Assembly: GCA_963758295.1 (NCBI GenBank)
Contig: CAVWUU010000001.1
Span: 544,001-608,000, forward strand
Source of the DNA: Candidatus Eremiobacteria bacterium
GTDB lineage: Bacteria; Vulcanimicrobiota; Vulcanimicrobiia; Vulcanimicrobiales; Vulcanimicrobiaceae
Direction of reading: 5' to 3'
DNA: 64,000 nt
Below the pieces are notes generated by a model. The model worked only from the letters and a program-made list of their open reading frames with translations, searched no databases and had not been told where the DNA came from. Position 1 is the stretch's first letter; every line of letters begins with the position of its first letter. Below, piece by piece: positions 5,538 to 34,836 of the stretch. The position numbers were made by a program, and so were the translations under genes.

Positions 5538-5644
5538 AGTTCCCGAGGCGAAGGCGTTCCTCCCGTCGTAAGCCCAGCGTTTACGGACGTTCCGGCCTTT
5601 CCCGGCTATGCCGACGAAGACGCCGAAAGCTCTCGGACGAGTAC

Positions 5645-5899
5645 GTGAGGGCGTGCCTCGGCGAAGCGCTGGTTCCGCTGCGAGAGAGGATCGATCCCGC
5701 GTCCTCAGAGTTGCTCGAGAAGTTGATTTTCCGCTGCGATTTCGTGAATCAGGTGGCGTTCAAATCGTACGAACATGCCGAAGTTTCGCAAGAACAAATC
5801 GACGCCGTTTCCGGCTTCGATCAACGATTGATGCGGCTTTCGACGAGCCCGTACGCTTGGATCGCCGCAAATCCGACGGTATTTGGGCGCCGTGAATGA
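5645..5899 (+). CDS. Small hypothetical protein (true start may be ATG 5608 with an indel)
   Basis: Protein-like composition; stop overlaps the next ATG (ATGA at 5896-5899). Confidence 0.5.
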   Translation: MRACLGEALVPLRERIDPASSELLEKLIFRCDFVNQVAFKSYEHAEVSQEQIDAVSGFDQRLMRLSTSPYAWIAANPTVFGRRE

Positions 5900-7933
5900 C
5901 GCAATGGATGCTCGCGACCGCGCGATGCAAGCGGCCGGAACACCGAAAAGCGGCTGACGGCAACTCATGGTTGGTGCCGTTTTTGCGTCGGCTGCGCCTG
6001 CACGTCTCTCCGCGCCCGGCTTCGGTCGTATCGGTGCGCTGCCCGGGTACGTCCATTGCGGTTCCCCGAACGGTGGATCGCGCCGCGGATCCGGGCGGTG
6101 TTGAGGGAAATCAACGAGCGATGGAGCACGCTCGGAGCGGGGGTTCCGCGAGCCGCAGGCGCGCCGCAAGTCCGGCTTCGTAAGAATGCGTCGCTCGGCG
6201 CGCAGGCCTATCGTTTAAACGTCGACGCATCCGGTGCCGTCATTGAAAGCTCCGCGCGGCGGGTGAATTTTACGGGTTGACTGACGCTTGCGCAGTTGGC
6301 GGTCCGCGACGGTTCAGGGATGGCGCTTGCCGTGCGTGCGGATCGCGGATTCGCCCGCTTTACCGTGGCGCGTATTTCGTGACGACGTTTCGCGCGGCCC
6401 GCTGCCGACGATGCGCTATTTCAAGGAGCGCATTCGCACGATCGCGGCGTTCAAAATGAACGGCTATTCGCCGTACATGGAGCACGTTTTCGTCAGCCGA
6501 CCGATCCGCTTCCGGCGCCGCTCGACGGCATCACGCCGGCAACAGTTGCGCGAACTTCGCGCGATACGCGCGCGCGCTTTCACGTCGCGCTGATTCCCGA
6601 GCAGCAGACGTTCGCGCACATGCACGGCACGCTGCGCGTCGAACGATATGCGCCGCTGCGGAATTGCCGCACGGATTTCTGCTGTCGCCGAACTCGCCCG
6701 CTCGCATGGCATATCTGGCTCGCGTCATCGCGCAAGAACTGCAGGCCGTTCCGCATCCGCCGTTTTTCCACATCGGCTCGGACGAAACGGCAACGCTCGG
6801 CGAAGGGCGCACGACCGGCAATACGTGGCGCAAAACGGCGGCCGTTCGCGACGTCTATGCGCGACCACATCATCGCGATGAGCACGCTTATCGCACCGTC
6901 GGGCGCGCGCATAATGGTCTGGGACGACGGGATCGAAGCGACCCCACGATCATGCGGCTGCATTCCGCGGAACGCCGTCGTCGTGAATTGGCACTACGGC
7001 AGCGAACGACGTTACGCGCCGTACATCGAGCGCATCGCGTCGCGGCGGTTTCGATCAGATGGTCGCGCCGGGCGCTGACAACTGGAACGAGATCTTTCCC
7101 GACGTCGACGACCGCCATTCCGAACGAGCGACGCTTCATCGACGCAAGGCAAGAGCGCACGGCGTTCTGGGACTGTTCCAAACGGTCTGGCACGACGACG
7201 GCGAAACGCTGTTCGAGGCGACGTGGTACCCGGTGCTGTATGCGGCGGCGCGCTGCGTGGCAGAGCACGGCGACGTCGATCCCGAGCGCGTTCGCGTGCG
7301 GATTTCCCGGCCGCGTTTTTCGGCGTCGACGATGCGCGCTACGCGCGACGACTTGCGCGATCTCGCGGACGCGAGCGCGAGCGCTTGCGGACGGCTTCGA
7401 CGGACACGCTGCTTCTGGGCCGATCCGTTCGATCCGCTCGACGCGGCTCGCGCATGCAAGACGCCGATCTCGCGACGGATTGCGCTTGCGACGCCGAAAC
7501 GGTCGAAGCAGCATTTGTCGCGCGCCGGCCGCCGCTGCACGCGAACGCTGCTCCGGTGATGTTTCTGGCGGCGCGCCGCTACGATGCGCTCGGCCGGCAG
7601 ATTTCAGATCGCCGCGCGAAGTGCGAGCTATTACGCCGACGCACTCGCGCACCCGGATCCGGACGGCGTGCGCGACCTGTTCTGGTGCAAGTACTGGTTC
7701 TGGGAGCATGCGCGATAGCGACGAGGAGCTCGCGCCGCTCTACGCAGCGCGCGTGGCGATACGAAAATCGCGAAGGTCATCTTGCACAGCAACCTGGAGC
7801 GCTACCATCTGGCCGCGCAGCTGAGCGATCCGCGTGCGGACGCGGTCGATCGCGCGACGTACGACGATTACGTTGCGCGACACAATACGCTGCCACCGCT
7901 CGACTCGATCTGCAGACGTGCTGCGCACCGTGA
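5896..7933 (+). CDS. GH20 beta-N-acetylhexosaminidase (many frameshifts)
   Basis: Fragments across frames: AQAYRLNV, IADSPALPWR..DDVSRG, KMNGY..YMEH, IPEQQTFAH, FHIGSDE (catalytic DE), IMVWDD, VNWHY, GLFQTVWHDD. Confidence 0.85.
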
Positions 7934-9974
7934 GCGCCGTCGCTGGTTCTCGTCGTCTTTCTCGCATCTTCGCCGCGCTGATGTACTGCGCGTGGATGCC
8001 GGCGATCCTGGCGGTTCCGCTGATGGCGGTGGTCATGGCGCTGGCCGCGGGCGTCGCCGCTGCGCAGATCGGCGGCATCGTCGTCGACCGGCGCGGCGTC
8101 GCTCGCGCCGTCTACGTCGCGGTCATTTTCGGCGCGCTGCTCGGGCGCGTGACGCTGGATACCGGCATCGCGCGCGCGATCGTCAATCTCGCGGCGGAAT
8201 ACGGCGGCGAGCGGCCGTTCGGCGCTGGCGCTCGTGCTGTGCGCGGTCGTTGCGTTGCTGTTCACGTCGCTCTCCGGACTCGGCGCGGTCATCATGGTCG
8301 GCTCGATCGTGCTGCCGATCATGATGACGACCGGCGTTCCGCGGACGCGTTGCGGCGACGCTGTTCCTCATGGCGTTTGCCCTGGGCTTCATTTTCAACA
8401 TCGTCAACTGGAAGTTTTACACGCAGTTTTTCGGCGTCGCGCCAGCAGCAGATGTAGCGCTATGCGATCGTGCTGGCGGCGATCGATGCGGTCGCGCTGA
8501 TCGTCTATGCGGTCGTCGCGTTTCGGCGCGAGCGCGGCTATGCGACGTGGGCCGTGCGCGCCGAACGCGACGCGGCAGCCGCGGCGTTCCGGCGTCGCGC
8601 TGCTCACGCCGGTATTGCCGCTGGTGCTGTACTACGCGCTGCATGTCGACGCGGCGCTCGCCTTTATCGTCTCGGCGCTCTACGGCGTGCTGGTGACGCG
8701 GCCGCGAAGCGCCGTCCAGACGCTCGTTGCGGCGGCGATTCGCGGCGTCGAAGACGTCGCGCCGGCGGTGCTGCTGTTCATCGGCATCGGCATGCTGCTC
8801 ACCGCGACGAAGGAGCCGCAGTTCGCGCAGCGCTGGCGCCGCTCGTCGCCGGCGGCTGGGTGCGCAATCCGATCGCGTTCGTCGTCGTTTTCGGGCTTGC
8901 TCAGCCCGCTCGTGCTCTATCGCGGACCGCTCAATCCGTTCGGCGTCGGCATCGCCATCTTCACGGTGCTGCTGGCGGCGCACGCGATTGCCGCCGGTGA
9001 TCCTGGTCGCCGCCGTCATGGCGGTCGTGCAAGTGCAGAACGTTTGCGATCCAACCAACACCGCCAACGTGTGGGTCGCCAACTTCACCGGCGTGCCGAT
9101 CGACGAGATCACGCAGCCGTACGCTTGCCCTATCAAGTCGGCCGTCGCGACCGCGGCGACGCATCGTCGTTGCGTCGCGGCGCCGGCGCTTTTCGGCGTG
9201 CGCGCCGTTCGCACGCTGTTCAGCCGCGGCGCGCGCGAGCCGATGCGCTGCCGCGGACTCTATGCGCCGGCATGCGGCCGCGGACCGCATCGGCGTCGGG
9301 AACGACGGCAACGCCGCTCGCGCAGCGGCGCAGCCAGCGAGTCGCTGCGCGCGTTGCTGCGACCACGGCATTCGCGAGCGTTCGACTTCGCGACGATCCC
9401 GAATGCGAGCGACTGCTGCGCGCAAACCGTACGCCGCGTACGTCACGTGATGGCGTCGACGCTTTCAGCTCGAGCGAAGGCACCGACTTAGACGTCGGTC
9501 TGCGGCTCGAAGATTGCGGCGGCTGGATCGTCGGCGAATGGCACGATCACGCGATCGTTGCCGCAAGCGCCTGCCGCGGCGACGCGCGCGGCGCTCGGCG
9601 CGCGCAGGGCGTCGCGCGCGTGCTCGCAGTGGGCGCGCAGCGAACCCGAGCGCAGCGCACAACTTGCTCGCAACGCGGTCTTGCGACGCCGCCGGCGATC
9701 CGCCGACGTACTATTACACGCTGTTCAAAACGGTCGACGGCAACATGCGCGTCGTACGTGCGCGCCGGCGGCCCGGCATACGACGCGGGCTTGCGCACCG
9801 GCGACATCGTGAACAAGCTGGACGGAAAGTATTGGTGGGAGTACGGCACGTATCAAACGCAGTCGCGCGCGTACGACGGCCAGCCGCACGCGTTCGAAAT
9901 CGAACGCGGCGGCACAGACCGATCGACATGCAACTCGGAGCACCGTTCGACCCCAGCGAAGGACAGTCGCATGA
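7930..9974 (+). CDS. Multi-TM ion-transporter-superfamily-like ('citrate transporter'-like) permease, apparently fused to a C-terminal soluble region with a PDZ domain (many frameshifts)
   Basis: Fragments PAILAVPLMA, TGIARAIVNLAAEYGGERP, LFTSLSGLGAVIMVGSIVLPIM, EDVAPAVLLFIGIGML, LYRGPLNPFG, CDPTNTANVWVA; downstream YVRAGGPAYDAGLRTGDIVNKLDG; GTGA overlap with GH20 stop; end approximate. Confidence 0.7.
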
Positions 9975-11366
9975 CGACATCGATCCGGAGCTCGCGACGT
10001 ATTGCGACGCGCATCGACGACGAGCTACCTCGACGAGCTCAAAGCGTTGGATTGCGATTCCGTCGGTCTCCGCCGATCCGGCGCACCGGCGACGTTCGGC
10101 GTTGCTGCGAGCGGCTGGTCGAACGCATGAGCGAAATCGGGCTTGACGCGCGCGTTCTCGAAACCGCCGGCAATCCGCTGGCATACGGCAGTGGCTGGAC
10201 GCGCCCGGCAAGCCGACGATGCTGATCTACGGCCACTACGACGTGCAGCCGGTCGATCCGATCGAGCTGTGGGAGAGCCCGCCGTTCGAAGGCACGGTGC
10301 GCGACGGCAAAATATATCGGCCGCGGCGCGGTCGACGACAAAGGCCAAGTGCTGATGCATCTGGCCGCGATCGAAGCGCATATGAAGACGCGCGGACGGC
10401 TGCCGGTCAACGTCAAGGTCGTCGTCGAAGGCGAAGAAGAGATCGGCTCGCCGAACTTCGAAGCGGCGCTCGAGCGCTACAGCGACGCGCTTCGCTGCCG
10501 ACGTCGCCGTCATCTCCGACACGGCGGTGTATGCCGAAGACGTTCCGTCGCTGACGACGTCGATGCGCGGGCTTGGTGCATTGGGAAATCACGGTGAGCG
10601 GACCGACGGCAGACGTGCACTCCGGCTATTACGGCGGCATCGTTCGCAATCCGATCGAAGCGCTCGCCGCGCATCATCGCGACGCTGAAAGATGCCGACG
10701 GCCGCGTTACCGTTCCCGGCTTCTACGACGGCGTGCCGGAGCTGGAACCCGAGCGGCTCGCGGAGCTGCGCAGCGCTGCCGTTCGACGAAGCGCGCGAAG
10801 CGCGCGCAGCTCGGCGTGCCGGAACTCGCGCGGCGAGACGCGGACGCTTGCCGCTCGAGCGCATGTGGTTCCGTCCGACGCTCGAGTGCAACGGCATTTG
10901 GGGCGGCTATCAAGGACCGGGCAGCAAGACGATCATTCCGAGTTGGGCGAAAGCAAAGATCTCGGCGCGACTGGTCGGCGAGCAAGATCCCGCGCGCGTT
11001 CGCGGCATCGTCGACGACGTATATCGAACGACATCGCGCCGCCCGGCGTGCGCGTCGACGGTCGAGCACGGACGGCGAAACGCGCGCCGGTCGTCGTCGC
11101 GCGCGACCATCCGGCCGTCGCAGCGGCGGCACGCGCGATGGAGGCCGGCTTCGGCAAGGCGCCGGTGTTCATCGGCACCGGCGGATCGATCGGCCCGGTC
11201 GCGAGTTTCGATCGCGTTCTCGGGATGCCGCAGGTGCTGATCGGCGTCGGATTGCCCGACGACCACATTCACGCGCCGAACGAGAAGTTCAATCTCTCGC
11301 AATTTTTCGGCGGCATTCAGCACGATGGCGTGCCTGTACGACGAGTTGGCGGAACCGCGTTCGTGA
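9971..11366 (+). CDS. M20 family dipeptidase (CNDP2/DapE-like; many frameshifts)
   Basis: [65 protein letters not shown]. Confidence 0.9.
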
Positions 11367-12340
11367 TTCCGATTCCTTGGGCGCTGACGGTGATGCAGCT
11401 GATCCCCTCGCCGCCGCCGCAGCCGATGGGGCCAACCCCGATCCCGGCCGGTCCATCGCCGTCGCCCACGCCATTTTCCGAGCGCGGTTTGTTGAGCAGC
11501 GGACTCGATGCGCTGGCCGCGCGCGTGAAAGCGCAGACCGGCGGAACGCTCGGCGCCGTAGTTTGGGATTTGCACAACGGGATCAACGTGCAGTGCAATG
11601 CGCAGCTGGCGTTCCCCATGGCGAGCGTCCAAAAACTGCCGTTGGCGGTGCTTACGTATGCGGCGATCGACTCGGGAGAGTTCCAAGCGAGTCAAACGAT
11701 TGCGATCGAACCCGCCGACGTCGTAACGACGGTCAGCCCGATCGCTCAAGAGTACGCAAAAGGACGTCGCGCGTACACCTTGCGCGAGCTCGTCGCGCGC
11801 ATGCTGCAGGACAGCGATAATACCGCCGCGGATGCGATTTATCGCGTTCTCGGCGGCGCTCAAGCGATCAATACATCGCTCACGGCAATGGGCTTCGACG
11901 GCTTCGCATATCGAACGGATGAAGCCGGACTCAGCGCCGATGCGGCGGCGGGACGAACGTTTGCGCGCGGTGGTGATAATGCGGGATCGCCTGCCGCGAT
12001 AGCCCAGATGCTCGGTGATTTGGCCCAGGGCAAGATCCTTTCCCAGACTTCGCGTGCCGAACTGCGAGGAATGTTAGCCGCCGTGAATACGTTCCCGGAC
12101 CGCTTGCGCGCCGGGTTTGGTGCCGGCACGTCCGTCGAGCACAAGACTGGGACGTCGATTACGGCCGGCGGCGTAACAGACGCAACGAACGACGTGGGAA
12201 TCGTTAACGCGAACGGACGTACGCTTGTTGTGGTCGCGATGCTTCACGGCGCGAAGGGTTCCGATAAGCAGCGCGATTCGCTCATTGCCGCAGTCGCGCA
12301 AATCGCGAACGACGCGACGCGGCTCTTTCCGACGCAATAG
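11363..12340 (+). CDS. Class A beta-lactamase-like serine hydrolase (Beta-lactamase2 family) with Pro-rich N-terminus
   Basis: FPMASVQK (SxxK), SDN, HKTGT, RTDE in omega-loop position; GTGA overlap with M20 stop. Confidence 0.88.
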   Translation: MIPIPWALTVMQLIPSPPPQPMGPTPIPAGPSPSPTPFSERGLLSSGLDALAARVKAQTGGTLGAVVWDLHNGINVQCNAQLAFPMASVQKLPLAVLTYAAIDSGEFQASQTIAIEPADVVTTVSPIAQEYAKGRRAYTLRELVARMLQDSDNTAADAIYRVLGGAQAINTSLTAMGFDGFAYRTDEAGLSADAAAGRTFARGGDNAGSPAAIAQMLGDLAQGKILSQTSRAELRGMLAAVNTFPDRLRAGFGAGTSVEHKTGTSITAGGVTDATNDVGIVNANGRTLVVVAMLHGAKGSDKQRDSLIAAVAQIANDATRLFPTQ

Positions 12341-12342
12341 CC

Positions 12343-14436
12343 GTGCGCAAGCTGCGTCTGGGCGTCGACGTCGGCGGAACGTTTACCGACGTCGTGGCAA
12401 TCGACGCAGCGACTCGCGAACTGGTTGCTCGCATCAAAGTCCCGACGACCCACCGTGCCGCCGAAGGCGTTGCTGCGGGTATCGTTCAAGGCATCGGCCA
12501 CATTCTGAGCGATAGCGGCGTCGAGCCGCAAGACGTGGCATTTATCGCGCACTCCACGACGCAAGCCACGAACGCCCTCCTTGAAGGCGACGTCGCCCGC
12601 GTCGGCGTGATTGGCATCACCGGGCGGTTCGGCTGGATCGCACGCCGTCAACTGCGTTTTCACGCAGTCGAGCTTGCTCCCGGCGTAAAATTCGAGCCGA
12701 AGTTCGCGTTCAGCGCCAAGCACGACGGCGATATCGAAGCGGCGGTAAAAACGCTCGTTGCCGCCGGGACGGAAGCGATCGCCGCCAGTGCGCCGTTCGG
12801 CGTTGACCGTCCCCGTTACGAGATTACCGCCGTCGAAAATGCTAAGGCGGCGGGCGTATTTGCGACGAGCGGGCACGACGTAACGGCGATGTACGGATTG
12901 CGCGCGCGCACTCGCACGGCCGCGTTGAACGCTGCGATTCTTCCCAAGATGGTCCGCACGGCACGCATGACGGCGCAAGCGGTGAGTGAAGCGGCAATCG
13001 GCGCACCCCTTATGATCATGCGAAGCGACGGCGGCGTAATGGACGTTCGGGAAATCGAGCGGCGCCCGATTCTGACCTTGCTCTCGGGTCCGGCAGCCGG
13101 TGTCGCGGGTGCGTTGCTCTACGAAAACGTCACGGACGGTATCTTTTTGGAAGTCGGCGGTACGAGCGTCGATTGTTCCGCCATCCGTGCGGGACAGCCG
13201 CAAATGCGCCCCGCGAAGATCGGCGGCCATCGGACGATGTTGCGCACCATAGACTCACGGACACTCGGCATCGCGGGCGGAAGCATGCCGCGTATTTCGG
13301 CCAATGCAATCGTCGATGTCGGTCCTCGATCCGCGCATATTGCCGGATGCGCGTACGCAACGTTTCTTCCGCCTGACGCGTTGGACGGCGCCCGAGTCGA
13401 GCGGTTTGCACCGACGGCGCACGATCCCGACGACTACGTGCGTTTCGTTCTTGCCAATGGCGAGGCGGCGACCGTCACGCCGACGTGCGCAAGCAATTTG
13501 CTCGGCTACGTTGCGGATGATGCCTTTGCACGCGGTAATGCTGAATCGGCTCGGCGCGCCTTTGCCCTTCTTGCCGAAACGATGGGCAGCGACGCCGAGT
13601 CGCTCGCGCGACGGATGTTGGAGCTGGGAACGCAGAAAGTTCGCGCCTGCATCGACGAATTAATTGCCGACTACGGACTGCCGCGCGAACGGCTGGTATT
13701 GATCGGCGGCGGAGGGGGCGCGGCCTCGCTGGTGCCGTTTGTCGCTGAGAGCCTGGCCTTCGAACATCGCATTGCGCGCGATGCGGAAGTCATTTCGCCG
13801 ATCGGTGTGGCGCTTGCGCTCGTGCGCGACGTGGTCGAACGTACCATCGTCGATCCTTCCCCGGAAGACATCGTGCGTTTAAGGCGCGAGGTTTCCGATC
13901 GGGTTATTGCGGCCGGCGCATCGCCGGATCGCATCGAAGTAGCTGTCGAAATCGACGCACAACGCAATCGCGTTCGTGCGACGGCATCCGGCGCGACGGC
14001 GCTCGTCGAAGCGGCGGGACGAACGGCGCAAGGAGAAGTTGAGCAACGAGCCGCTGCCGCGCGCGCCATGCGGCTATCGCCGGCAAAGCTGGAGCGCTCC
14101 GAGCTGACGCCGCAACTGACAGCGTATGTCTCCGGAAAAGATTTGCGAATCGTCGACGAACGCGCTATCGTTCGTTTAGCGTTACGCGACGCAACGATTC
14201 ACAAGGCTACAGCCGGCACGTTGGAAGCACGTTTGCGCGAGGCGATCGAAAATGCGACGGCATTTGGCGACGTCGGCCGGTCGCTGCCGGAAGTCTACGT
14301 CATACACGGGGGCAGAATCGCCGACTTCAGCGGGCTGGCCGGCGTAGAACAGGCGATTGCGCTCGCTCGCGAAGAAATTGGCGGACGCGAAGCCGTGGAA
14401 GCGGTAAGCATCCTGACCGTGCCGCGCGCAGCGTAG
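12343..14436 (+). CDS. Hydantoinase/oxoprolinase A-family protein
   Basis: GVDVGGTFTD, HSTTQATNALLEG, MIMRSDGG, LLSGPAAGVAG, EVGGTSVD, GGGGGA. Confidence 0.9.
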   Translation: MRKLRLGVDVGGTFTDVVAIDAATRELVARIKVPTTHRAAEGVAAGIVQGIGHILSDSGVEPQDVAFIAHSTTQATNALLEGDVARVGVIGITGRFGWIARRQLRFHAVELAPGVKFEPKFAFSAKHDGDIEAAVKTLVAAGTEAIAASAPFGVDRPRYEITAVENAKAAGVFATSGHDVTAMYGLRARTRTAALNAAILPKMVRTARMTAQAVSEAAIGAPLMIMRSDGGVMDVREIERRPILTLLSGPAAGVAGALLYENVTDGIFLEVGGTSVDCSAIRAGQPQMRPAKIGGHRTMLRTIDSRTLGIAGGSMPRISANAIVDVGPRSAHIAGCAYATFLPPDALDGARVERFAPTAHDPDDYVRFVLANGEAATVTPTCASNLLGYVADDAFARGNAESARRAFALLAETMGSDAESLARRMLELGTQKVRACIDELIADYGLPRERLVLIGGGGGAASLVPFVAESLAFEHRIARDAEVISPIGVALALVRDVVERTIVDPSPEDIVRLRREVSDRVIAAGASPDRIEVAVEIDAQRNRVRATASGATALVEAAGRTAQGEVEQRAAAARAMRLSPAKLERSELTPQLTAYVSGKDLRIVDERAIVRLALRDATIHKATAGTLEARLREAIENATAFGDVGRSLPEVYVIHGGRIADFSGLAGVEQAIALAREEIGGREAVEAVSILTVPRAA

Positions 14437-14628: not shown

Positions 14629-14669
14629 AAAAGAAAAAGAGCCGCGTCGTCGCGGCTCTTTTTCCTTTT
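14629..14669. terminator. Bidirectional intrinsic terminator
   Basis: AAAAGAAAAAGAGCCGCG-TCGT-CGCGGCTCTTTTTCCTTTT between convergent genes. Confidence 0.9.
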
Positions 14670-16239: not shown

Positions 16240-16957
16240 CTACCGTCTCGTCCCTACAAAGAGCCCCCTACCGGCCGGAGCCTCCGGATCGTACTCTACG
16301 TCGAACTTCTTGGTGCGTTCGAACGCCCCGCGATACTCGGCGTCGGTGAAGAGCATCAGCCGGTGGGGCTCGGCGAACGTGCGGACGCCGTCGGGCGCCG
16401 CCGTCATGAAGTTGTAGTTCAGGATCGACACGTTGCCGTCGCGACGGCTCACGCTCATGCGCGCTACCTTCAGGTTCGGTTCGTCGGCAAACTTTGCGTC
16501 GATGTATCCGTCGCGCCACTCGCTCGGGGCGAACCCACGGCTCGATGACGACTACGCCGCCCGGCCGAACGTGGCGCGCGAACGTCTCGAGGGTTTGGTC
16601 GAGGAGCCGTACGTTCGGCACGTAGCCGATCGAGCCGAAGAGGCAGACGATCGCGTCGAAGCGCGCGCCTAAATTGAAGCCGATCATGTCTTGCAGGTGC
16701 AGCGGAACGTCGTGCAGCCGTTCCTGTGCGACCGCGAGCATCGCTCGATCCACGTCGAGGCCTTCGGCGGCGTACCACTGGCGCAGGAACTCGAGATGAC
16801 GTCCCGTTCCGCACGCTACGTCTAGTAGCGCCGTCCCGTCGGAACGTTTATGCGACTCAATGACGTCGTGGATGCGCGTCGCCTCGGCGGCGTAGTCTTT
16901 GCCGTCGGCGCGTTGCAGTGCATCGTAGTACGCAGCGGAGCGTGCGTAGATCGACAT
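16240..16957 (-). CDS. Class I SAM-dependent methyltransferase (TylM1/DesVI-like), frameshift near 16535
   Basis: GKDYAAEA, LLDVACGTGRH, DM..F.LG.RFDAIVCLFGSIGY, PGGVVVIEPW; C-terminus EPHRLMLFT continues in ORF 16240..16458. Confidence 0.85.
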
Positions 16958-17089: not shown

Positions 17090-18439
17090 ATGCATGAATA
17101 CGACGTGCTCGTCGTCGGCGGCGGTAACGCCGGTTGTGCGGCGGCACTCGCAGCGGCGCGTCACGGCGCACGCACGATGCTTGTCGAGCGCTATGGATTT
17201 CTCGGCGGAACGGCCACTGCATCGATGGTCGGCCCGTGGATGACGTTCCACTCCGGCGACGAGCGCATCGTGGGCGGCATCGCACAGGAAATCGTCGAGC
17301 GGCTCGTCCGGCGCGGCGCATCGCCGGGACACATCGGCGATTCTTCGGATTACGTAGCGACAATCACGCCTTTCGATCCCGAAATGCATAAAGCGTTGCT
17401 CTTCGAGATGATGAAGGAAGCCAAGGTGCAGCTTTTGCTGCATTCGTGGTTCCTTCGGGCCGAAGTAGAAGGCGACGCAATTACCGGTGCGACGTTTGCT
17501 ACGGTCGGCGGTGAACGATCGTATCGCGCAAGGACCGTGATCGACACCACGGCCGACGCGTACGTTGCTGCATCGGCCGGCGTGGAAACGCAGCAGGGCG
17601 ACGCCCGCGGCCGCGTACAGCCGGCCAGTTTGATGTTCCGGCTGAGCCACGTCGACCTGACGAAGACCGCTACCTACGTACGAATGCACGTCGACCAAAT
17701 GCGTTCGTCGCTGAAAGCGCACGAACGCACCGCACCGGCGCTTACCGCCGTGGCCGGTTTGTACGATCTTTGGCGCCAAGCCAAAGACGACGGCCTCGTA
17801 GACATTCCGCGCGAGCTCGTCTCGTTTTTCATCTCACCGTATCCCGATGAAGTCACGGTGAACATGACGCGCGTCACGAATATCGATCCGTTAGACCCCG
17901 AAGACCTAACGCGAGCCGAAGTGGAAGCACGCTTGCAAGTAACGGCACTGCTGCGATTCTTTCGCGAGCGCGTTCCGGGATTCGAAAACGCTCGATTGGC
18001 AGCGACCGGCGCGCAAGTCGGGATTCGGGAATCGCGCCGTATCGTTGGACGCTACACGCTTACGGCCGACGACGTTCTGCATGCGCGCCGCTTCGATGAC
18101 GCCGTCGCGCGCAGCGCCTATCCGGTCGACATTCACAATCCGTCGGGAAGCGGGACGACGACTCACCGGCTCGAGCCCGGCGAAAGCTACGAAATTCCGT
18201 ATCGCTGTTTGTTGCCCGCGAAACGCGAACGTATGCTCGTTGCCGGCCGTTGCATTTCCACGACGCATGAAGCACTTGCGTCTACGCGCCTTACCCCGAC
18301 CGTTATGACGCTCGGACAGGCTGCCGGAACCGCGGCCGCCTTAGCGAAAAACCATCGCGTTCGCGTGTCGGAAGTAGACACTCACAAACTCCGGGAGACG
18401 CTCATAGCCGACGGAGTCGACCTACGGAGAAGTTCGTGA
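17090..18439 (+). CDS. FAD-dependent oxidoreductase (PF12831-like)
   Basis: DVLVVGGGNAGCAAA, ERYGFLGG, GIRESRRI.G, YEIPYRCL, VAGRCIS, GQAAGTAA. Confidence 0.9.
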   Translation: MHEYDVLVVGGGNAGCAAALAAARHGARTMLVERYGFLGGTATASMVGPWMTFHSGDERIVGGIAQEIVERLVRRGASPGHIGDSSDYVATITPFDPEMHKALLFEMMKEAKVQLLLHSWFLRAEVEGDAITGATFATVGGERSYRARTVIDTTADAYVAASAGVETQQGDARGRVQPASLMFRLSHVDLTKTATYVRMHVDQMRSSLKAHERTAPALTAVAGLYDLWRQAKDDGLVDIPRELVSFFISPYPDEVTVNMTRVTNIDPLDPEDLTRAEVEARLQVTALLRFFRERVPGFENARLAATGAQVGIRESRRIVGRYTLTADDVLHARRFDDAVARSAYPVDIHNPSGSGTTTHRLEPGESYEIPYRCLLPAKRERMLVAGRCISTTHEALASTRLTPTVMTLGQAAGTAAALAKNHRVRVSEVDTHKLRETLIADGVDLRRSS

Positions 18440-18747: not shown

Positions 18748-19671
18748 ATGCTGGTTGCGGGGATCGACGGAGGACAAAGTTCCACGGTCGCCGCGATCGC
18801 GGACGAAAGCGGCCGCATCATTTCCCGCGGCGTTGCCGGTCCGGCCGACGAAGTCGGCGCGGATGCTTCGTCGACGCGTTTGCGTGACGCCTTACGGGAT
18901 GCGGTGCAAGATGCTGTGCGCAATGCCGGCTTCCCGTCGCACACGTCATTTGATGCAATCGTCGCCGGCATCAGCGGATACGAAGGCACGGTTTTCGGCT
19001 TAGCGCCGGACCTGCCGGCGCGACGGTTGCGCTTGATGCACGACGCGCCGATCGCGTATGCCGCCGCCCTCGGTGAAAAGCCGGGCGTTACCGTCATTGC
19101 AGGAACCGGTTCCGTAGCATTCGCTCGTTCCACGGATGGACGCGAGTTGCTTTGCGGCGGCTGGGGTTTTCTTTTCGGTGATGAAGGCAGCGCATTCTGG
19201 ATTGCGCGCAGCGCGATAACGCTCGCAATCGAGCACGAAACTTGCGCCGGTGTAGAAAGCCTGCTGAGTTTCTTCGACGCCCATTCGTTGCGCGAACTCG
19301 TTCGCGGATTTTACGTCGGAAAGGTCTCGCGCGACGAACTCGCCTCATTTGCACCGCTTTGCATTGACGCCGCGAAATCCGGCAGCCAATGCTCGTGCCT
19401 GGAAGAGCCCGCGAAAGAGGCGGCGTCGAGGCTGGCGCGCCTCGCAGCCAAAGCCGCGATCGAGCCGGCAGAATCGCCGTGGGTGGCCTTTACCGGCGGC
19501 CTGACGCGGGACGCATGGTTCCGCGAACGCCTTGCCGAGGCATTGCCTGAAAGCATGACGGCAGCCGGCATCTCGCATTGGCGGCAAACCGAGCCGGCAT
19601 CGGAGCCGGTTCTAGGCGCAGTTTTGCTCGCACTTCGCGAAGCCGGCATCCGCGAGATAATGCCGCAGTGA
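18748..19671 (+). CDS. BadF/BadG/BcrA/BcrD ATPase family sugar kinase (GlcNAc kinase-like)
   Basis: GIDGGQSST, VIAGTGS, GGWGFLFGDEGSAFWI. Confidence 0.88.
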   Translation: MLVAGIDGGQSSTVAAIADESGRIISRGVAGPADEVGADASSTRLRDALRDAVQDAVRNAGFPSHTSFDAIVAGISGYEGTVFGLAPDLPARRLRLMHDAPIAYAAALGEKPGVTVIAGTGSVAFARSTDGRELLCGGWGFLFGDEGSAFWIARSAITLAIEHETCAGVESLLSFFDAHSLRELVRGFYVGKVSRDELASFAPLCIDAAKSGSQCSCLEEPAKEAASRLARLAAKAAIEPAESPWVAFTGGLTRDAWFRERLAEALPESMTAAGISHWRQTEPASEPVLGAVLLALREAGIREIMPQ

Positions 19672-20345
19672 GCATTCTTGACGACCTTCGCGGCCGGCTA
19701 ATCGTGTCGGTCCAGGCTTGGCCCGGGTCGCCCATCGACGATCCGTACGTTCTCGCGGCGATGGCCGAGGCGGCACAGGTAAATGGAGCCGCCGGCGTAC
19801 GTGTCCAGGGCGTCGCCAATATGCTCGCCGTTCGCGCGAGAGTGGCAATTCCGATGATCGGCATCATCAAATGTCATTACGAAGGCTACGAACCGTACAT
19901 CACGCCTACCTTAAAACAGGTCGCGGAGATCGTGCAAAGCGGTGCGGAAATCGTCGCGTTCGACGCAACGCCGCGGCCGCGCCCGGGCGGAACGACGGTC
20001 GAACGGCTCGTCGGCGAGATTCATGCGGCCGCTCGCATTGCAATGGCCGATTGCGCTACGGCGGAAGACGCGTTAGCTGCGCAGGCCGCCGGCGCCGAGA
20101 TCGTTGCGACAACGCTGTGCGGATACACGCCCGGAACGAAAGGTAGAACCTTGCCGGCGCTTGATTTGGTGAGAACGCTGCATCAATTGGAAGCTTTCAC
20201 GATCTGCGAAGGGGGCGTAAGCTCGCCGTCGCAATTGAGAGAAGCGCTCGAAGCCGGAGCAGATGCCGTTGTAGTGGGTACTGCTATTACCAATGTCGAT
20301 GCATTGGTTCGGGAGTTTGCGGCCGGAGCGATCAAGCACCGCTAA
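19668..20345 (+). CDS. nanE: N-acetylmannosamine-6-phosphate 2-epimerase
   Basis: LIVSVQA, IGIIK, YITPT, DAT.RPRP, MAD, TTLCGYT, EGG, VVVGTAIT; GTGA overlap. Confidence 0.9.
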   Translation: MSILDDLRGRLIVSVQAWPGSPIDDPYVLAAMAEAAQVNGAAGVRVQGVANMLAVRARVAIPMIGIIKCHYEGYEPYITPTLKQVAEIVQSGAEIVAFDATPRPRPGGTTVERLVGEIHAAARIAMADCATAEDALAAQAAGAEIVATTLCGYTPGTKGRTLPALDLVRTLHQLEAFTICEGGVSSPSQLREALEAGADAVVVGTAITNVDALVREFAAGAIKHR

Positions 20346-26658: not shown

Positions 26659-28025
26659 CTAAGCGGCCTCTTCGAGCGGCATGGTCCGTTCTTGCCGGCG
26701 CGACTTCAGCGATGACGCGATACCAAGCGCGATCAGCGCAACAGCGCAGAACGCCAAGTAGGCATGGCGGTATCCGGTGGTCTCGTTCACGCTTGCGCCC
26801 ATGACGCCGGCTGCTAGCGAGCCGCCGAGGATCTGCCCCACGATCAGTGCTTGGCTGAGCAACCCAACCGCCGTTGCGCGCGAACGCTCGCCCGTTTCAT
26901 TCGTAACGATGTACCGCGTCGGCGCCCCGAGCAGCGCCCCGAAGCCACAGCCCGCTACGATCATCGAAACGATCGATAACGGCAACGAATGGAAGCCGAT
27001 TGCAAAAAGCGCTAAACCCGAGTTCGGTAAGGATCGCGCCGCCGAGCAACACGTCGCGGCTGCCGATGCGATCGAGCGCGCGGCCGGAAAGCGGAATAAC
27101 GATTACGAACGTCAGCGCACCCAGCGCAGCAATCGACCCGGCAGCGAGATACGAGAGATGCTGCGACGCGACGAGCACCGCAGGGATGAAGAAGAGCGAG
27201 CCTTCGAGCATGCCGATTGCGAGCTCGAGGACGTAGGTTTTTACTAATTGCGGCGCGCCCACGACGCTTAGCGGCAACAGCGGATTACGCGCTTGCCGTT
27301 CCCAGAACACGAATCCGGCAAGCAGCACCACACCGGCGATGGACACGCCGATACGCGTTGTCGTTAGGCCGTCCATGAGCGAGAGTAAACCCGCGCAAAA
27401 GAGCACGAGTCCCGCAGCATCGAGCGGTCCGCGAACGCGCGGCGCATTCGACGGGACATCGCGTAACGCGCGCCAGATAACGATTGCCGCCAGTGGAAGG
27501 TTTAGCAACGAAAATCCAACGCCACGAAATAAAATGGGTGACGACGCCGCCGAAAAGCGGTCCGACGATTGCGGCAAGGCCCCACGTGGCCGCGACTAGG
27601 CCTAGTGCCGCACCCCGGCGTTCTTTAGGAACGACGTCTGCAATTGCCGCGGTCGCGACGGGAAAAATGCCGCCGGCGCCCAGCGCTTGAATCGCGCGCG
27701 CAAAAAGAAAAACGTGAAACGACGGCGCGGTAATCGCGATTGCGCTGCCGATCGCAAAGAGACCAACGCATGCAACGTACACGAGACGCCGTCCGTAACG
27801 GTCGGCAAGCGTGCTCGCAATGGCGATCGAGGCAACGTTCACCAGCAGATACAGGGTGAAGACCCAAGCAAGGTCCGAAGTCTGAACCGCAAACTGCGTC
27901 CCGAGCGCAGGAAGCGCCGGTGAAAGGACCCCGAGATCGAGGGCTCCCGCAAAAACGCCCAAGCCAAGGGTAAGAAGAAGTGGAACGGCCCGTTTATCGA
28001 GGTTGTGGCCGGCAACGGTTTGCAC
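26659..28025 (-). CDS. MFS transporter (DHA2-like), frameshifts near 27505 and 27000
   Basis: GVFAGALD..LSPALP, LADRYGRR, ARAIQALGAGGIFP, ERRGAALG, GRALDRIGSR; split over three ORFs. Confidence 0.85.
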
Positions 28026-28030
28026 GAAAG

Positions 28031-28947
28031 TTACGCGATGATCCTATCGATGACCATGATGACGCACATGAGCGCGAGATAGATCAGAGAAAATTTGAAC
28101 GTGCGCCGCGCCCAGGTCTTTCCCGGATCGCGCCAAGCGCGGATCGTGTCGTACAGAAAAATCCCGCCCAGCACTGCGGCAGCCGCAGTATACAGCGGGC
28201 CCATGATATGAAGCGGATACAGAATTACCGACGCGACGACGAGCAAAATCGTGTAGTAGATGATTTCGCGCTTCGTGCGTTCGCGGCCGCTGACGTTGGG
28301 CAGCATCGGAACGTTGGCTTTGTGATAATCCATTTCGGTCATCAACGCGAGCGACCAAAAATGCGGCGGCGTCCACAAGAAAATCAACGCGAAAAGCCCA
28401 GCGCCGGGCCGCCGATTTCGTGCGTCACCGCGGCCCAACCAACGAGCGGCGGAACGGAGCCGGCTGCACCGCCGATGACGATGTTCAGAGGCGTCGTGCG
28501 CTTCAGCCACATCGTATAGATTACGACGTAGTAGACGTTCCCGGCCAGCGAAAGCCATGCGGCCAGCGGATTCACGAGGAAGAATAGCATCGCGAACGAC
28601 GCGATGCCTAAAATGACGGCGAACGTGACGGCATTTCGCACCGTCAAACGGCCGGCCGCGAGCGGGCGAGTTCCCGTGCGGCGCATCAGCTTGTCGATGT
28701 CACGATCGTAGATGCAGTTCAACGCTGCAGCGGAGCCTGCAGCGAGCGCACCGCCGAGCAGCGTCCAAAACACCAGAGAAAGCGACGGAATCCCGCGCGC
28801 GGCCATGACCATCGCGGCGGCCGTAGTGATCAAGAGCAGGACGATGATGCGCGGCTTCGCGAGATCGAGATAGTCGCTCAGCGTCCCAAGCAAACCCGTG
28901 AAGCGCGACGGAGCCGCACCTTCGACGCGGGACAGGGTCGAGCTCAC
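28031..28947 (-). CDS. ctaB: Protoheme IX farnesyltransferase (heme O synthase), frameshift near 28385
   Basis: LAKPRII, NCIYDRDIDKLMRRT..RPL, YTMWLKR, NIVIGG, WTPPHFW, DY..ANVPMLP. Confidence 0.93.
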
Positions 28948-29857
28948 CGTTGGGTGACCGTTGAACGAACGGTTTGTTCCGTACCGTCGAGCGCCGCAAA
29001 GACCGTTGCGACAACGAACGCAAGAAACACGAGCGCGGCGTTTACCGCGTGCGCTTCACGCAAATCCATAGGCAGGCGAACGCGACGTTCATCAAGCCAA
29101 GCAGCACTTGGACGAAGACTAGGGCAAGTCCGGTGCTTACAGCGGCGCGAACCCGCAAAGAGGCAGGACGAGCCCACGTCATAGCGATGGAAGCGGCGGC
29201 GCACACCAGCGTTGCGCCGGCGATGAAACGATGCAGCATTTGCACGTACTGGCCTTGGGTGTACACCACTACGTTACCCGCGCATTCGGGAATCGAAAGA
29301 CAGGCAAGCCCGGCGCCGCTCGAGCTGACGTACGCGCCGACGCACATCGTAATGAATGCCACGAGCGCGGTTCCCGCAAGGACACCCGCAAGAGCCGATT
29401 CGTATCGCGAAGCCGAGCGTTGCGGCGTTCGTCCGGCAGCGTAGCCGAAGATGCTCATTGCGGTCAGGGTGGCGATGAACGCCATGGCGGTGCCCCAATG
29501 AAGCACCACGGAGATCGGCGAGTTCGAAAGATGCACGGTCGCCGCGCCGAGGCCGACTTGTACGACAAAGAGCACGCCGATGATCGCGATCGTCGGACCG
29601 ATGAACGGCGAGCGCCTGCGCATGCGCCACGCCGCAATCATGACCGCAATCACCAAAGGAGCGACGCAGAAGGCGAAAAGACGGTGCGTCCATTCCCAGA
29701 CCGTTCCGTCGGCCATGGACGGAATGAGCTGGCCGTGACAGAGCGGCCAATCGGGGCACGTCATTCCGGCGCCATTGATACGAGTCCAACTGCCAAGAAT
29801 TACCGTGCCGAAGGCGACTAAGACGGCCGCCACGGACAACCGACGCAGAGTTTTCAT
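28944..29857 (-). CDS. ctaA: Heme A synthase (COX15/CtaA), frameshift near 29075
   Basis: GAGMTCPDWPLC, EWTHR, second Cys pair CLSIPEC, MLHR; GTGA-type overlap with ctaB. Confidence 0.88.
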
Positions 29858-31326: not shown

Positions 31327-32385
31327 GTGATCGAATCCCTCGTACAACTCGACGTTTCAATCGAACGTCTCGGCCTAGTGCTCGCACCGGACGGCGATCC
31401 CACTGAAGCCGAAGGGGTTCTGAATCCCGCATGCACGCGCATGCGCGACGGGGAGTTGTTGCTGTTTCCGCGTGCGGTAGCCAAAGGAAACATTTCGCGC
31501 ATCGGCCGCGTGAAGACGCGCTCGCTCGAGTCGGGCTTCGAAGTGCATCGCGACGGCTTTGCGCTCGAACCGCAAGCGGATTACGAATTGCGCGCGCATC
31601 CAGGATACGGATGCGAAGACGCTCGCGTAACCTTCGTCCCCGTGCTCGATGCATACGTAATGATGTACACCGCGTTCGGGCCGGCAGGCCCGCGCATCGC
31701 GGTTGCGATTTCGAACGACGGATTCGAATGGAACCGCATGGGAATGATGCGCTTCGACGGTCCGGGTTTGGCGACGGGCGACGATAAAGACGGCGCGTTC
31801 TTCCCGGAGCCGGTGATTTCACCCGCTGGAGTTCGATCGCTCGCGTTTTACCACCGGCCGATGTTGCATCTCTCCGCCGTCGACGGCCGCGCCGCCATTC
31901 CGATGATCGAGCGCATGCCCTTCCACGATCGCGAATCGATTCGCATCGGGTACATTCCGCTCGAGCCGGTGCTCGGCGATCGCAATCGTTTGCTCGACGT
32001 CGCCGAAAGCGCGCTCGTGCTGTCGCCCAACGAAGATTGGGGTCCCATCAAGATCGGTGCCGGCACGCCGCCCGTGCGCATCGCCGAGGGATGGATGTCG
32101 CTGTACCACGCGGTCGATCTGGTCGACAACACGGGCAGCAAACCGAAATTTCGCTACAGCGCCGGCATCGTGATTCACGATCTCGAACAGCCCCACCACG
32201 TGATCTACCGCTCGCCGAAGCCCGTCCTTGCGCCGGAATCGGATTTGGAACGTACCGGGATCGTTGACAACGTCGTTTTCCCGACGGGTATCGATCCGCG
32301 CCAAGACCTGGGCGATCGCGTTTTCGACATTTATTACGGAATGGCCGATTACACGGTCGGAGCGGCGCGCATGAAGCTCGGCTAG
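31327..32385 (+). CDS. GH130-family glycoside hydrolase/phosphorylase
   Basis: AAGGAG RBS; VLNPA, GCEDARV, DKDG, YHRP, KIGAGTPP, VVFPTG, YYGMAD. Confidence 0.88.
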   Translation: MIESLVQLDVSIERLGLVLAPDGDPTEAEGVLNPACTRMRDGELLLFPRAVAKGNISRIGRVKTRSLESGFEVHRDGFALEPQADYELRAHPGYGCEDARVTFVPVLDAYVMMYTAFGPAGPRIAVAISNDGFEWNRMGMMRFDGPGLATGDDKDGAFFPEPVISPAGVRSLAFYHRPMLHLSAVDGRAAIPMIERMPFHDRESIRIGYIPLEPVLGDRNRLLDVAESALVLSPNEDWGPIKIGAGTPPVRIAEGWMSLYHAVDLVDNTGSKPKFRYSAGIVIHDLEQPHHVIYRSPKPVLAPESDLERTGIVDNVVFPTGIDPRQDLGDRVFDIYYGMADYTVGAARMKLG

Positions 32386-32388
32386 GCC

Positions 32389-32874
32389 GTGCTTCGCTAC
32401 TACGCTATCGCGACCGGAATCGTTTTGGCGTTCGTAATAATTGCGACCGCATGGGTGAATCGCGACTTGATTCGCATCAAGATCGCATCGGTAAACGTCC
32501 GCGTTCCTCCAAAGGCCGCCGATCCGCTGGGATTGCACGGCCTTTCGCATAATGCGCTCACCGGCGACGCGCCTTGGGCCCTTTCGGCGCTTCCGGACTG
32601 CTTGCGCCAACGTGCCGAATGGAGCGGACCGCTCGCTTACGCTCAAGCACATTTGCCATCGGGCTTAACCGCCGTTGCGGCCGGCAGCCGCCTTACGTAC
32701 GGACCTTGCACGATTTCCGTCGTTGGCGGCGAAGCGTACGTAACGCGTGGTCCCGATCGCCTACGCATACCGCCGCACGTGCAGTTTTACCGCGCGCCCG
32801 GCGTGCTTGCGGTCATTCGAACGACCCGTTCCGGTTCGGAACTGCGCGTTTACGACGACCCAACGAAATTTTGA
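32389..32874 (+). CDS. Hypothetical membrane-anchored protein
   Basis: N-terminal TM; tightly packed between GH130 and prfC. Confidence 0.7.
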   Translation: MLRYYAIATGIVLAFVIIATAWVNRDLIRIKIASVNVRVPPKAADPLGLHGLSHNALTGDAPWALSALPDCLRQRAEWSGPLAYAQAHLPSGLTAVAAGSRLTYGPCTISVVGGEAYVTRGPDRLRIPPHVQFYRAPGVLAVIRTTRSGSELRVYDDPTKF

Positions 32875-34471: not shown

Positions 34472-34836
34472 AGTTTCGCAAAGTTTTGGCGATGGCCGCC
34501 GTTGCCGTTTTGGTAGCGGGCTGCTCGTTTCAGAACAAGTACGAAAAAGAAGCCGACAAGATTACGCGCGCCGTAATGAACAACGACCTCGGCCCCGTCA
34601 AAAACGACATCGCGCCCGGCGAAACGATCTCGCGCGTGAAGATTGCCGCGTGGGCGGACGAGCTCGACGCGCAGGGCAAGCTCATTTCGATCAAAGAGAC
34701 GCCGCAATGCGATAAGGGGCCGGGCTACCACTGCTTCAACGTGAAATTCGAAAAGCACAATTACGTCGAGTGGATGGCCATGGACGACCAAGGCAAAGTG
34801 ACCCGCTGGAACTTCCACATGGCAAATGCAAGCTAG
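34468..34836 (+). CDS. Putative lipoprotein
   Basis: AAGGAG RBS, GTGA overlap, [18 protein letters not shown] lipobox. Confidence 0.75.
   Translation: MKFRKVLAMAAVAVLVAGCSFQNKYEKEADKITRAVMNNDLGPVKNDIAPGETISRVKIAAWADELDAQGKLISIKETPQCDKGPGYHCFNVKFEKHNYVEWMAMDDQGKVTRWNFHMANAS

Follow-up and report, generated by a model that had tools for sequence, protein, structure and literature searches.

The window analysed here is a stretch of 64,000 nt from a Candidatus Eremiobacteria genome (G000). When stop-to-stop pieces of the window were searched against Pfam, the six families that an earlier note had read at the locus were all found on the + strand. GH20b and PDZ matches, fragments of M20 and M20_dimer, Beta-lactamase2 (151.6 bits) and Hydantoinase_A (213.8 bits) were recovered. 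The features of the locus are as follows.

5589..5899, + strand: conserved small ORF (homology-supported part only; the N-terminus is unreadable in the window)
5896..7933, + strand: divergent GH20-like beta-N-acetylhexosaminidase (GH20b domain, partial GH20 match, H-x-G-x-D-E; 23 frameshifts)
7930..9974, + strand: predicted elevator-type anion permease with the IT superfamily fold and a PDZ domain (29 frameshifts)
9971..11366, + strand: M20 family dipeptidase (Pfam and G002 orthologue match; 17 frameshifts)
11363..12340, + strand: class A beta-lactamase-like serine hydrolase (intact; Pfam, bla_class_A score)
12343..14436, + strand: partner-less HyuA-like protein, predicted ASKHA ATPase, 697 aa (intact; Pfam, motifs, structure model)
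14633..14669, no strand: G+C-rich hairpin with A and T runs on either side (folding)
17090..18439, + strand: PF12831 FAD-dependent oxidoreductase (425.9 bits)
18748..19671, + strand: BadF/NagK-like sugar kinase (NagK_SO3507, 85.1 bits, below the cut-off of 370)
19578..20345, + strand: NanE, ManNAc-6-P 2-epimerase (Pfam, 191.9 bits)

The junctions read earlier were recovered (ATGA at 5896, GTGA at 7930, ATGA at 9971, GTGA at 11363 and a 2-nt gap at 12341-12342), as were the BadF kinase and nanE genes downstream, from 18748 and 19578; as Pfam matches NanE only from residue 60 onwards, its true start probably lies further downstream. A strong terminator had been placed at 14629, and the hairpin there folds at -31.3 kcal/mol (z -5.7; equalled by 0 of 200 shuffles). 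It was absent from the output of the consensus terminator scan and was supported by folding. The HyuA-like and amino-acid permease genes converge on it, and it is likely a bidirectional terminator. The description of the locus as a six-gene operon held for the families, all of which are present; only the beta-lactamase-like and HyuA-like genes are intact ORFs, and the set is not fixed in relatives (see below).

Frameshifts in the GH20-like, permease and M20 genes of the window total 69, with one or more further shifts in the small ORF. The 69 were counted by frameshift-aware alignment with the intact proteins of G002, a genome of the same genus in which the five larger genes are all intact; the HyuA-like gene showed none. 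Frame-corrected identity to G002 was 69 % (GH20-like), 77 % (permease) and 83 % (M20), and the two intact genes, beta-lactamase-like and HyuA-like, gave 69 % and 82 %, respectively. The indels comprised 59 insertions and 10 deletions, and the frameshift block starts and ends within genes. In the whole assembly, a custom, unvalidated frame-tracking script reported 55 hot blocks, 16 of them with at least 15 switches. That the assembly reaches a completeness of only 82 % although it consists of 6 contigs also suits a technical origin of the shifts. It is highly improbable that the shifts are real and that the first half of the operon is decaying in this strain. Their confinement to 5.6-11.3 kb, with clean flanking genes, would suit such decay, but the normal residue identity in spite of 69 shifts, the bias to insertions, the block edges inside genes and the many similar blocks elsewhere in the genome argue against it. 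The corrected identity, the insertion bias and the number of similar blocks point instead to patchy consensus error, and we concluded from these sequence comparisons that the frameshifts are assembly errors and not biology. Such dense blocks break genes in this assembly and mimic pseudogenes. Gene calling by GC3 was unsuccessful, as the genome has no elevated GC3, and it was replaced by conservation clustering.

The small ORF as annotated (5645-5899) is a fragment of a conserved gene that encodes about 133-137 aa in relatives. Its conserved part begins by 5589, with a shift near 5625, and tblastn with the small proteins of G002 and L074 gave matches at 5589-5624 (frame 3) and 5627-5842 (frame 2). 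The cluster was present in 55 of 80 permease loci; in the Atlas it falls into hypothetical clusters found in Vulcanimicrobiota only, and no Pfam family matched it. Kinship with the small HExxH proteins encoded after HyuA-like genes elsewhere was considered and rejected, as no significant similarity was observed.

The GH20-like protein is divergent. GH20b (PF02838) scored 45.3 bits in the intact G002 orthologue (cut-off 26.1) and 17.8 bits in the broken window piece. The PF00728 match covers just profile positions 76-243 or 76-261 of 348 at 26-35 bits, and the genome's two canonical GH20 genes scored 361-384 bits. Residues H267, G269, D271 and E272 are invariant among nine orthologues, and the catalytic Asp-Glu motif aligns with the GGDE of solved GH20 enzymes. 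Classic leader peptides were seen in six of the nine aligned proteins. Export is uncertain in the genus of the window, because the leader there is merely a short hydrophobic stretch.

The permease matched no Pfam family. Its core (approximately residues 1-417) is followed by an alpha/beta domain and, at the C-terminus, by a PDZ domain. When the structure model (pLDDT 74.8) was compared using Foldseek, the matches were TRAP SiaQM and IseQM, DASS (NaCT, VcINDY, NaS1), Pho90, AbgT and ArsB, with E-values of 7.6e-7 to 1e-3 and target-normalised TM-scores of 0.41-0.61; all are anion carriers. A weak sequence match to an isethionate TRAP carrier was also obtained (E-value 8e-4). Judged from the model, therefore, the permease is an elevator-type anion carrier with the IT superfamily fold. 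Simple hydropathy did not settle the topology or the membrane side of the PDZ domain. An apparent permease-HyuA fusion in G009 was discarded, as a chance read-through in a different frame accounts for the long open stretch.

The G002 orthologue of the M20 protein scored 527.5 bits against NF006053 'dipeptidase' (cut-off 441). Class A beta-lactamases carry the motifs S-x-x-K, S-D-N and K-T-G, and SVQK, SDN and KTG were read in both the G002 and the window protein of the beta-lactamase-like family; their bla_class_A scores (193.5 and 186.6 bits) are under the NCBIfam cut-off of 200. These proteins have an RR and a hydrophobic leader wherever the ORF extends that far upstream, and in the window an RR-containing leader would be gained with GTG at 11330 as start. 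Like the GH20-like protein, the beta-lactamase-like protein thus looks exported rather than cytoplasmic. The two peptide-related genes are optional: among 56 Eremiobacterota loci, M20 was present in 31 and the beta-lactamase-like gene in 15, always together with M20 (15/15), so the peptide-trimming part of the set proposed earlier is not a fixed one. The slot of the beta-lactamase-like gene is filled by a methyltransferase in G011 and G014, and in G025 some 4 kb separate the M20 gene from the core.

The HyuA-like protein scored 213.8 and 85.7 bits against Pfam, and its model was of high quality (pLDDT 87.2, pTM 0.85). Foldseek matches (E-values 1e-31 to 1e-23) were N-methylhydantoinase, acetone carboxylase beta, acetophenone carboxylase alpha and gamma and caprolactamase alpha, and the ATP-dependent activators RACo and HgdC were among the fold neighbours outside the HyuA group. 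The phosphate and adenosine motifs of the ASKHA fold do not vary among 34 HyuA-like sequences. No HyuB (PF02538) partner was matched in G000 (82 % complete), G002, G011 or G014; the fifth genome searched, G009, contains one HyuB, adjoining a different HyuA paralogue. The HyuA-like protein therefore has the A-subunit fold over its full length, and the motifs for ATP binding, in common with the HyuA/HyuB enzymes (N-methylhydantoinase, 5-oxoprolinase, caprolactamase, acetone and acetophenone carboxylases), whereas the B-type partner was not found in four of the five genomes, a permease gene is coupled instead and the protein scores far under every curated equivalog cut-off. The proposal of an ATP-dependent step agrees with this protein, which would act as an ASKHA-type ATPase without a HyuB partner.

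When related genomes were compared, GH20, permease and HyuA were found together in 9 of 10 relatives, and the order GH20-permease...HyuA was kept in 54 of the 56 Eremiobacterota loci with enough flank, in agreement with the synteny expected from the earlier reading. The HyuA-like gene was present in 23 of 24 genomes of one family (f1) and 5 of 5 of another (f2). The fixed Eremiobacterota core consists of the small ORF, the GH20-like gene, the permease and the HyuA-like gene. The PF12831, BadF and NanE genes are set apart from the operon by two minus-strand genes, and in 55 loci with enough flank PF12831 was present in only 27 and BadF in 17.

The permease/HyuA-like pair is not confined to this phylum. 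Of 16 plasmid records in which a permease was matched, 12 have the HyuA-like gene next to it (haloarchaea, Selenomonas, Streptomyces, E. faecium), and the same permease lay just upstream in 30 of 47 metagenome loci of HyuA-like orthologues with enough upstream DNA. The pair was observed in haloarchaea, Firmicutes, Actinomycetes and metagenomes, usually within amino-sugar or sugar-acid operons. Companions include PF12831 (recurrent in other phyla), NanE, PGM, ROK, GH94, GH20 and GHL10/SusD, and other loci carry the sugar-acid genes Ldh_2, DUF386, PfkB, HUMPS, SIS, KDPG aldolase and UxuA. With BadF and NanE in the window and NanE, PGM, ROK, GH94 and GH20 elsewhere, the wider neighbourhood has the amino-sugar theme that had been suggested. 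No paper on the pair was found in open-access PMC and bioRxiv. HyuA-like genes are also paired with FTR1-type membrane proteins (three metagenome loci and a Deinococcus plasmid), a context in which a sugar kinase makes little sense and which counts against the reading favoured below.

We hold with moderate confidence that the locus is a real, conserved nutrient-salvage operon of Eremiobacterota, built on a bacterial and archaeal permease/HyuA-like module and serving to take up an acidic envelope fragment with a beta-HexNAc cap, which is then trapped in an ATP-dependent step. We infer the substrate, the site of each protein in the cell and the reaction of the ATPase as follows. The exported GH20-like enzyme would trim, outside the cytoplasm, an acidic glycoconjugate with a beta-linked N-acetylhexosamine cap, most likely a piece derived from microbial envelope polymers, and the exported beta-lactamase-like hydrolase would act there too in lineages that carry the gene. 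The anionic product would then be carried in by the permease, whose added alpha/beta and PDZ domains may help recognition, and trapped or activated by the HyuA-like ATPase in a kinase-like, ATP-dependent step. Where present, the M20 dipeptidase may cleave a released dipeptide, and the PF12831 flavoenzyme, BadF kinase and NanE encoded a few kb downstream could route the amino-sugar part to GlcNAc-6-P. As the BadF kinase already adjoins NanE, a second kinase is not obviously needed.

Muropeptides are one possible substrate among several. It is unlikely that the operon salvages GlcNAc-MurNAc-peptides, with GH20 removing GlcNAc, the beta-lactamase-like and M20 proteins trimming the stem peptide, the permease importing the product and the HyuA-like protein acting as an analogue of a MurNAc/anhMurNAc kinase. 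As an amino sugar that is also an acid, MurNAc suits an anion carrier as well as both genomic contexts of the module; the lineage-specific extras (PDZ, M20 dipeptidase, penicillin-binding-type serine hydrolase) are peptide-related, and MurQ elsewhere in the genome could accept MurNAc-6-P. However, MurQ, AnmK and GH3 NagZ, clustered elsewhere, plus NagA, were present in G000 and in all four relatives searched; in the genome of the window the murQ, anmK and nagZ cluster is on contig C4, far from the window. The operon therefore does not replace classical recycling, and of ampG and anmK, whose absence had been proposed as a check, anmK is present in G000. Nor did the expected co-occurrence appear, since no murQ, anmK, GH3, nagA or amidase was among the recurrent neighbours. 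The optional M20 and beta-lactamase-like genes and the methyltransferase substitution also count against muropeptides, and to our knowledge NanE has no role in MurNAc catabolism. The NagZ/AmpG/AmpD/AnmK/MurQ route of E. coli and Pseudomonas shares with the operon a hexosaminidase, a permease, peptide trimming and an ASKHA-fold ATP step, and GlcNAc-6-P is the likely end point of both. Nevertheless, each operon protein belongs to another family, the operon has no amidase and its hexosaminidase is probably exported, whereas NagZ is cytoplasmic.

Two further explanations concern the division of labour. The HyuA-like protein could gate, energise or activate its membrane partner, as other ASKHA 'activators' do, instead of acting on the imported molecule. 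We regard this as unlikely. The protein lies directly behind a membrane protein across domains of life, the partner can be the quite different FTR1-type permease (at one locus with an adjoining iron repressor), and RACo and HgdC are among its fold neighbours; its close structural relatives, however, are all substrate-phosphorylating A subunits, and we know of no elevator-type secondary carrier that needs an ATPase. That only GH20, permease and HyuA-like cooperate, with M20 and beta-lactamase-like as unrelated passengers (housekeeping dipeptide turnover, antibiotic resistance), is very unlikely. The variable presence of both genes, the methyltransferase found in the slot of the latter, its class A motifs and near-cut-off score and the distant M20 gene of G025 would agree with passengers, but both genes are translationally coupled when present (ATGA 9971, GTGA 11363) and no beta-lactamase-like gene occurs without M20.

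The salvage operon that we favour resembles known sugar-acid operons. In E. coli yiaK-S (YiaMNO TRAP carrier, LyxK) and gntP/gntK, an IT-superfamily carrier is combined with an ASKHA kinase, and here too the gene of an ATP-dependent enzyme comes after that of an anion carrier; Firmicute-like loci of the pair lie amid Ldh_2 (YiaK-like), DUF386 (YiaL-like), HUMPS, SIS, PfkB and KDPG aldolase genes. In contrast to both, the ATPase is HyuA-like and not FGGY or GntK, the carrier has no Pfam family, and in Eremiobacterota it gains alpha/beta and PDZ domains and a GH20 partner. The sialic-acid nan cluster (NanT, NanA, NanK, NanE) likewise has NanE and a sugar kinase beside an anion carrier, leading towards GlcNAc-6-P. 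A PF12831 flavoenzyme and the HyuA-like ATPase take the place of NanA, and no NanA lyase was found among the recurrent clusters and the operon neighbours run through Pfam.

A broader proposal, doubtful but with an appreciable chance of being right, is that the partner-less HyuA-like proteins represent a novel class of ASKHA ATPases, coupled to permeases and widespread among bacteria and archaea, that are either acidic-sugar kinases of a new kind or ATP-driven 'traps' for secondary carriers. The Eremiobacterota extension would then be an envelope-spanning harvest of peptidoglycan-type glycopeptides from dead microbes by means of the PDZ-bearing carrier, the exported GH20-like enzyme and the exported penicillin-binding-type hydrolase. 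At least 7998 HyuA-like homologues exist, and an assigned chemistry would annotate thousands of 'N-methylhydantoinase A' genes, which are almost certainly misnamed; a new ATP-dependent step in the breakdown of amino sugars or sugar acids could come to light as well. How Eremiobacterota feed is poorly known; they are uncultured bacteria that abound in soil and peat. Because almost all members of one of their families carry the operon, it tells something of their diet.

The six gene families named in the earlier note (a small ORF, GH20-like, permease, M20, beta-lactamase-like and HyuA-like) were each detected on the + strand at 5.6-14.4 kb of the window. The operon they form is real and conserved, but its first half is garbled in the window by what appear to be consensus errors: whole ORFs were observed only for the last two genes, and upstream of 11.3 kb the families are seen only as pieces in alternating frames.

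Whole ORFs of the operon in the window
11363 (or 11330)-12340, + strand, beta-lactamase-like gene
12343-14436, + strand, HyuA-like gene (697 aa)

The junction motifs listed in the earlier note were confirmed (ATGA at 5896 and 9971, GTGA at 7930 and 11363, and a 2-nt gap ahead of 12343). The terminator placed there near 14629 corresponds to a strong hairpin at about 14633-14669 (-31.3 kcal/mol, z -5.7; equalled by none of 200 shuffles).

At the corresponding locus of the same-genus relative G002, the five genes from GH20-like to HyuA-like are intact (639, 669, 462, 328 and 697 aa). These proteins were aligned to the window using our own frameshift-aware protein-to-DNA script.

Frameshifts in the window and amino acid identity to G002, once corrected where frameshifts occur
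GH20-like, 23 frameshifts, 69% identity
Permease, 29 frameshifts, 77% identity
M20, 17 frameshifts, 83% identity
Beta-lactamase-like, 1 frameshift (doubtful, as the N-terminus is divergent), 69% identity
HyuA-like, 0 frameshifts, 82% identity

The 69 events over the first three genes comprise 46 of +1, 13 of +2, nine of -1 and one of -2. Real pseudogenisation is considered very improbable. Corrected identities are in line with those of the intact genes, which gives no indication that selection has been relaxed. Moreover, the frameshift block ignores gene boundaries, since it starts within the small ORF (shift near 5625) and ends within the 3' end of M20 (11321). Frames were tracked with our own unvalidated codon-usage script, some of whose blocks with few switches could simply be genes that overlap naturally; the operon block showed 24 same-strand frame switches. 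Genome-wide, the same script gave 55 hot blocks (252,684 nt together), 16 of them with at least 15 switches.

Examples of hot blocks
C4:1154811-1174518, 55 switches
C6:39267-52806, further block
C1:483657-490593, further block
26666-29075, elsewhere within the window
32381-34820, elsewhere within the window

Identities, block boundaries and genome-wide blocks together argue that the operon frameshifts are assembly (consensus) errors. The genome-wide blocks further suggest a patchy, unpolished consensus across the assembly (3.03 Mb in six contigs, rated 82% complete), and other "pseudogenes" of this genome are to be distrusted for that reason.

The HyuA-like gene is present in 29 of 41 related genomes (23/24, 5/5 and 0/11 in families f1, f2 and f3), a tally that takes in the unpublished genomes G004 and G024, on which no other claim depends. 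Among ten fetched relatives, nine carry GH20-like, permease and HyuA-like genes together, and five have M20 between permease and HyuA-like. A permease-profile scan of species genomes gave 412 candidate stretches, of which 290 were confirmed and the best 80 loci retained; by record title, the permease-bearing relatives include Eremiobacteraeota, Vulcanimicrobiota and Baltobacteraceae. Architectures were counted in the 56 loci with enough flank among these best 80.

Operon architectures (of 56 loci)
Small ORF, GH20-like, permease, HyuA-like: 18
The same with the small ORF duplicated: 5
GH20-like, permease, HyuA-like without the small ORF: 2
Core with M20, without the beta-lactamase-like gene: 14
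Core with both M20 and beta-lactamase-like genes: 15
Irregular: 2

M20 was thus found in 31 of the 56 loci. A beta-lactamase-like gene occurs in 15 of the 56, every time alongside M20. In the relatives G011 and G014, a SAM-dependent methyltransferase fills the slot between M20 and HyuA-like in place of the beta-lactamase-like gene.

Methyltransferases in the M20-HyuA slot
L014:6971-7750, - strand (locus of a relative)
L015:10271-11425, + strand (locus of a relative)

A methyltransferase also lies in the window itself (16271-16957, - strand). In 25 of the best 80 permease loci, a FecR-domain anti-sigma-like gene stands on the opposite strand between small ORF and GH20-like (e.g. L059:5199-6020, - strand). 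ECF sigma factors and a CarboxypepD_reg-type TonB-dependent receptor (17 loci; e.g. L093:1428-4031) recur upstream. These genes hint that the permease locus involves signalling across the envelope and import through the outer membrane.

In the GH20-like protein, a GH20b domain is accompanied by a partial match to the catalytic domain; the protein is far more divergent than the two canonical GH20 genes of the genome (361-384 bits). Its H-x-G-x-D-E motif, aligned to GGDE of solved enzymes, is invariant in nine orthologues; six of nine aligned orthologues have classic signal peptides, and the N-terminus in the window's own genus is only a short hydrophobic stretch. The permease matched no Pfam family. 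Its model (pLDDT 74.8) resembles elevator-type anion carriers (TRAP SiaQM and IseQM, DASS, Pho90, AbgT and ArsB), with a confident alpha/beta domain containing two invariant cysteines at residues 440-571 and a PDZ domain at 585-657. The M20 orthologue in G002 scores above the NCBIfam "dipeptidase" equivalog cut-off. In the case of the beta-lactamase-like protein, SxxK, SDN and KTG motifs are all present, scores (186.6 and 193.5 bits) fall just below the curated class A cut-off of 200, and an RR plus hydrophobic leader occurs in every case where the ORF extends far enough upstream. The HyuA-like model (pLDDT 87.2, pTM 0.85) shows full-length likeness to A-type subunits, sharing the fold of those of N-methylhydantoinase, acetone and acetophenone carboxylases and caprolactamase, and its ATP-binding motifs are invariant across 34 sequences. 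No HyuB partner was found in this 82% complete genome, G002, G011 or G014.

At the base of the operon is a pair shared across domains of life and as yet uncharacterised, the permease and this orphan ATPase, for which no paper was found in the open-access literature. In plasmid records, the HyuA-like gene lies directly beside 12 of 16 permease matches, the hosts being Haladaptatus, Halocatena, Halostagnicola, Selenomonas, Streptomyces and E. faecium. The last of these retains only a remnant of the gene: in L105 (plasmid NZ_CP099980.1) and six other plasmids the unannotated match is limited to residues 19-185, and this stretch, adjoining an intact permease homologue, resembles a module copy that has decayed. 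A PF12831 flavoenzyme adjoins the pair in Selenomonas and haloarchaea. Of 80 metagenome loci, the first 54 were taken as orthologues, with 35-62% identity to the Selenomonas protein. Among these the same permease stands just upstream in 30 of the 47 loci with at least 1.5 kb of upstream DNA; PF12831 was found in 13 loci and NanE in six. Single operons contain PGM, ROK, GH94, a 997-aa GH20, a SusD/GHL10 locus or sugar-acid genes (Ldh_2, DUF386, PfkB, HUMPS, SIS, KDPG aldolase and UxuA). This permease is absent from control loci with canonical HyuA, where HyuB occurs (5 loci); four short fragments were kept in the control group.

In haloarchaea and many bacteria, a small protein with a conserved HExxH...E motif and no Pfam match is encoded directly 3' of the HyuA-like gene (L104:11142-11660, L108:11088-11600 and L141:3767-4447, the last being one of 18 such metagenome loci); it is absent from the Eremiobacterota operon. 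A divergent HyuA-like subgroup stands behind FTR1-family (iron-permease-like) membrane proteins, not the anion carrier (metagenome loci L151, L152 and L155; L107:7721-10983 on a Deinococcus plasmid). This pairing in some loci calls for caution in reading the HyuA-like protein as a kinase. At locus L162, the gene after the HyuA-like one encodes an iron-dependent repressor containing a FeoA domain.

The theme of the operon is amino-sugar and acidic-sugar salvage. Muropeptides, as a candidate substrate, fit the peptide-related additions (PDZ, M20 and serine hydrolase). The idea of a non-canonical replacement for classical recycling was not supported: MurQ, AnmK, GH3 NagZ and NagA were all found in this genome and in 4/4 relatives searched. 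The first three lie within about 5.4 kb on another contig (C4:900903-906273; the MurQ-like protein, at 285.5 bits, is slightly below the cut-off of 302), a cluster kept in G002 and the relatives G009, G011 and G014, and NagA is elsewhere on C4 (C4:1197454-1198419). In the neighbourhood survey, none of murQ, anmK, GH3 or nagA recurred beside the operon.

The BadF kinase and NanE reported downstream are indeed present, together with PF12831, at 17.1-20.3 kb of the window. The ORFs called for BadF and NanE (18748-20345) overlap by 94 nt; the true NanE start is probably near 19755, because the NanE Pfam match begins at residue 60.
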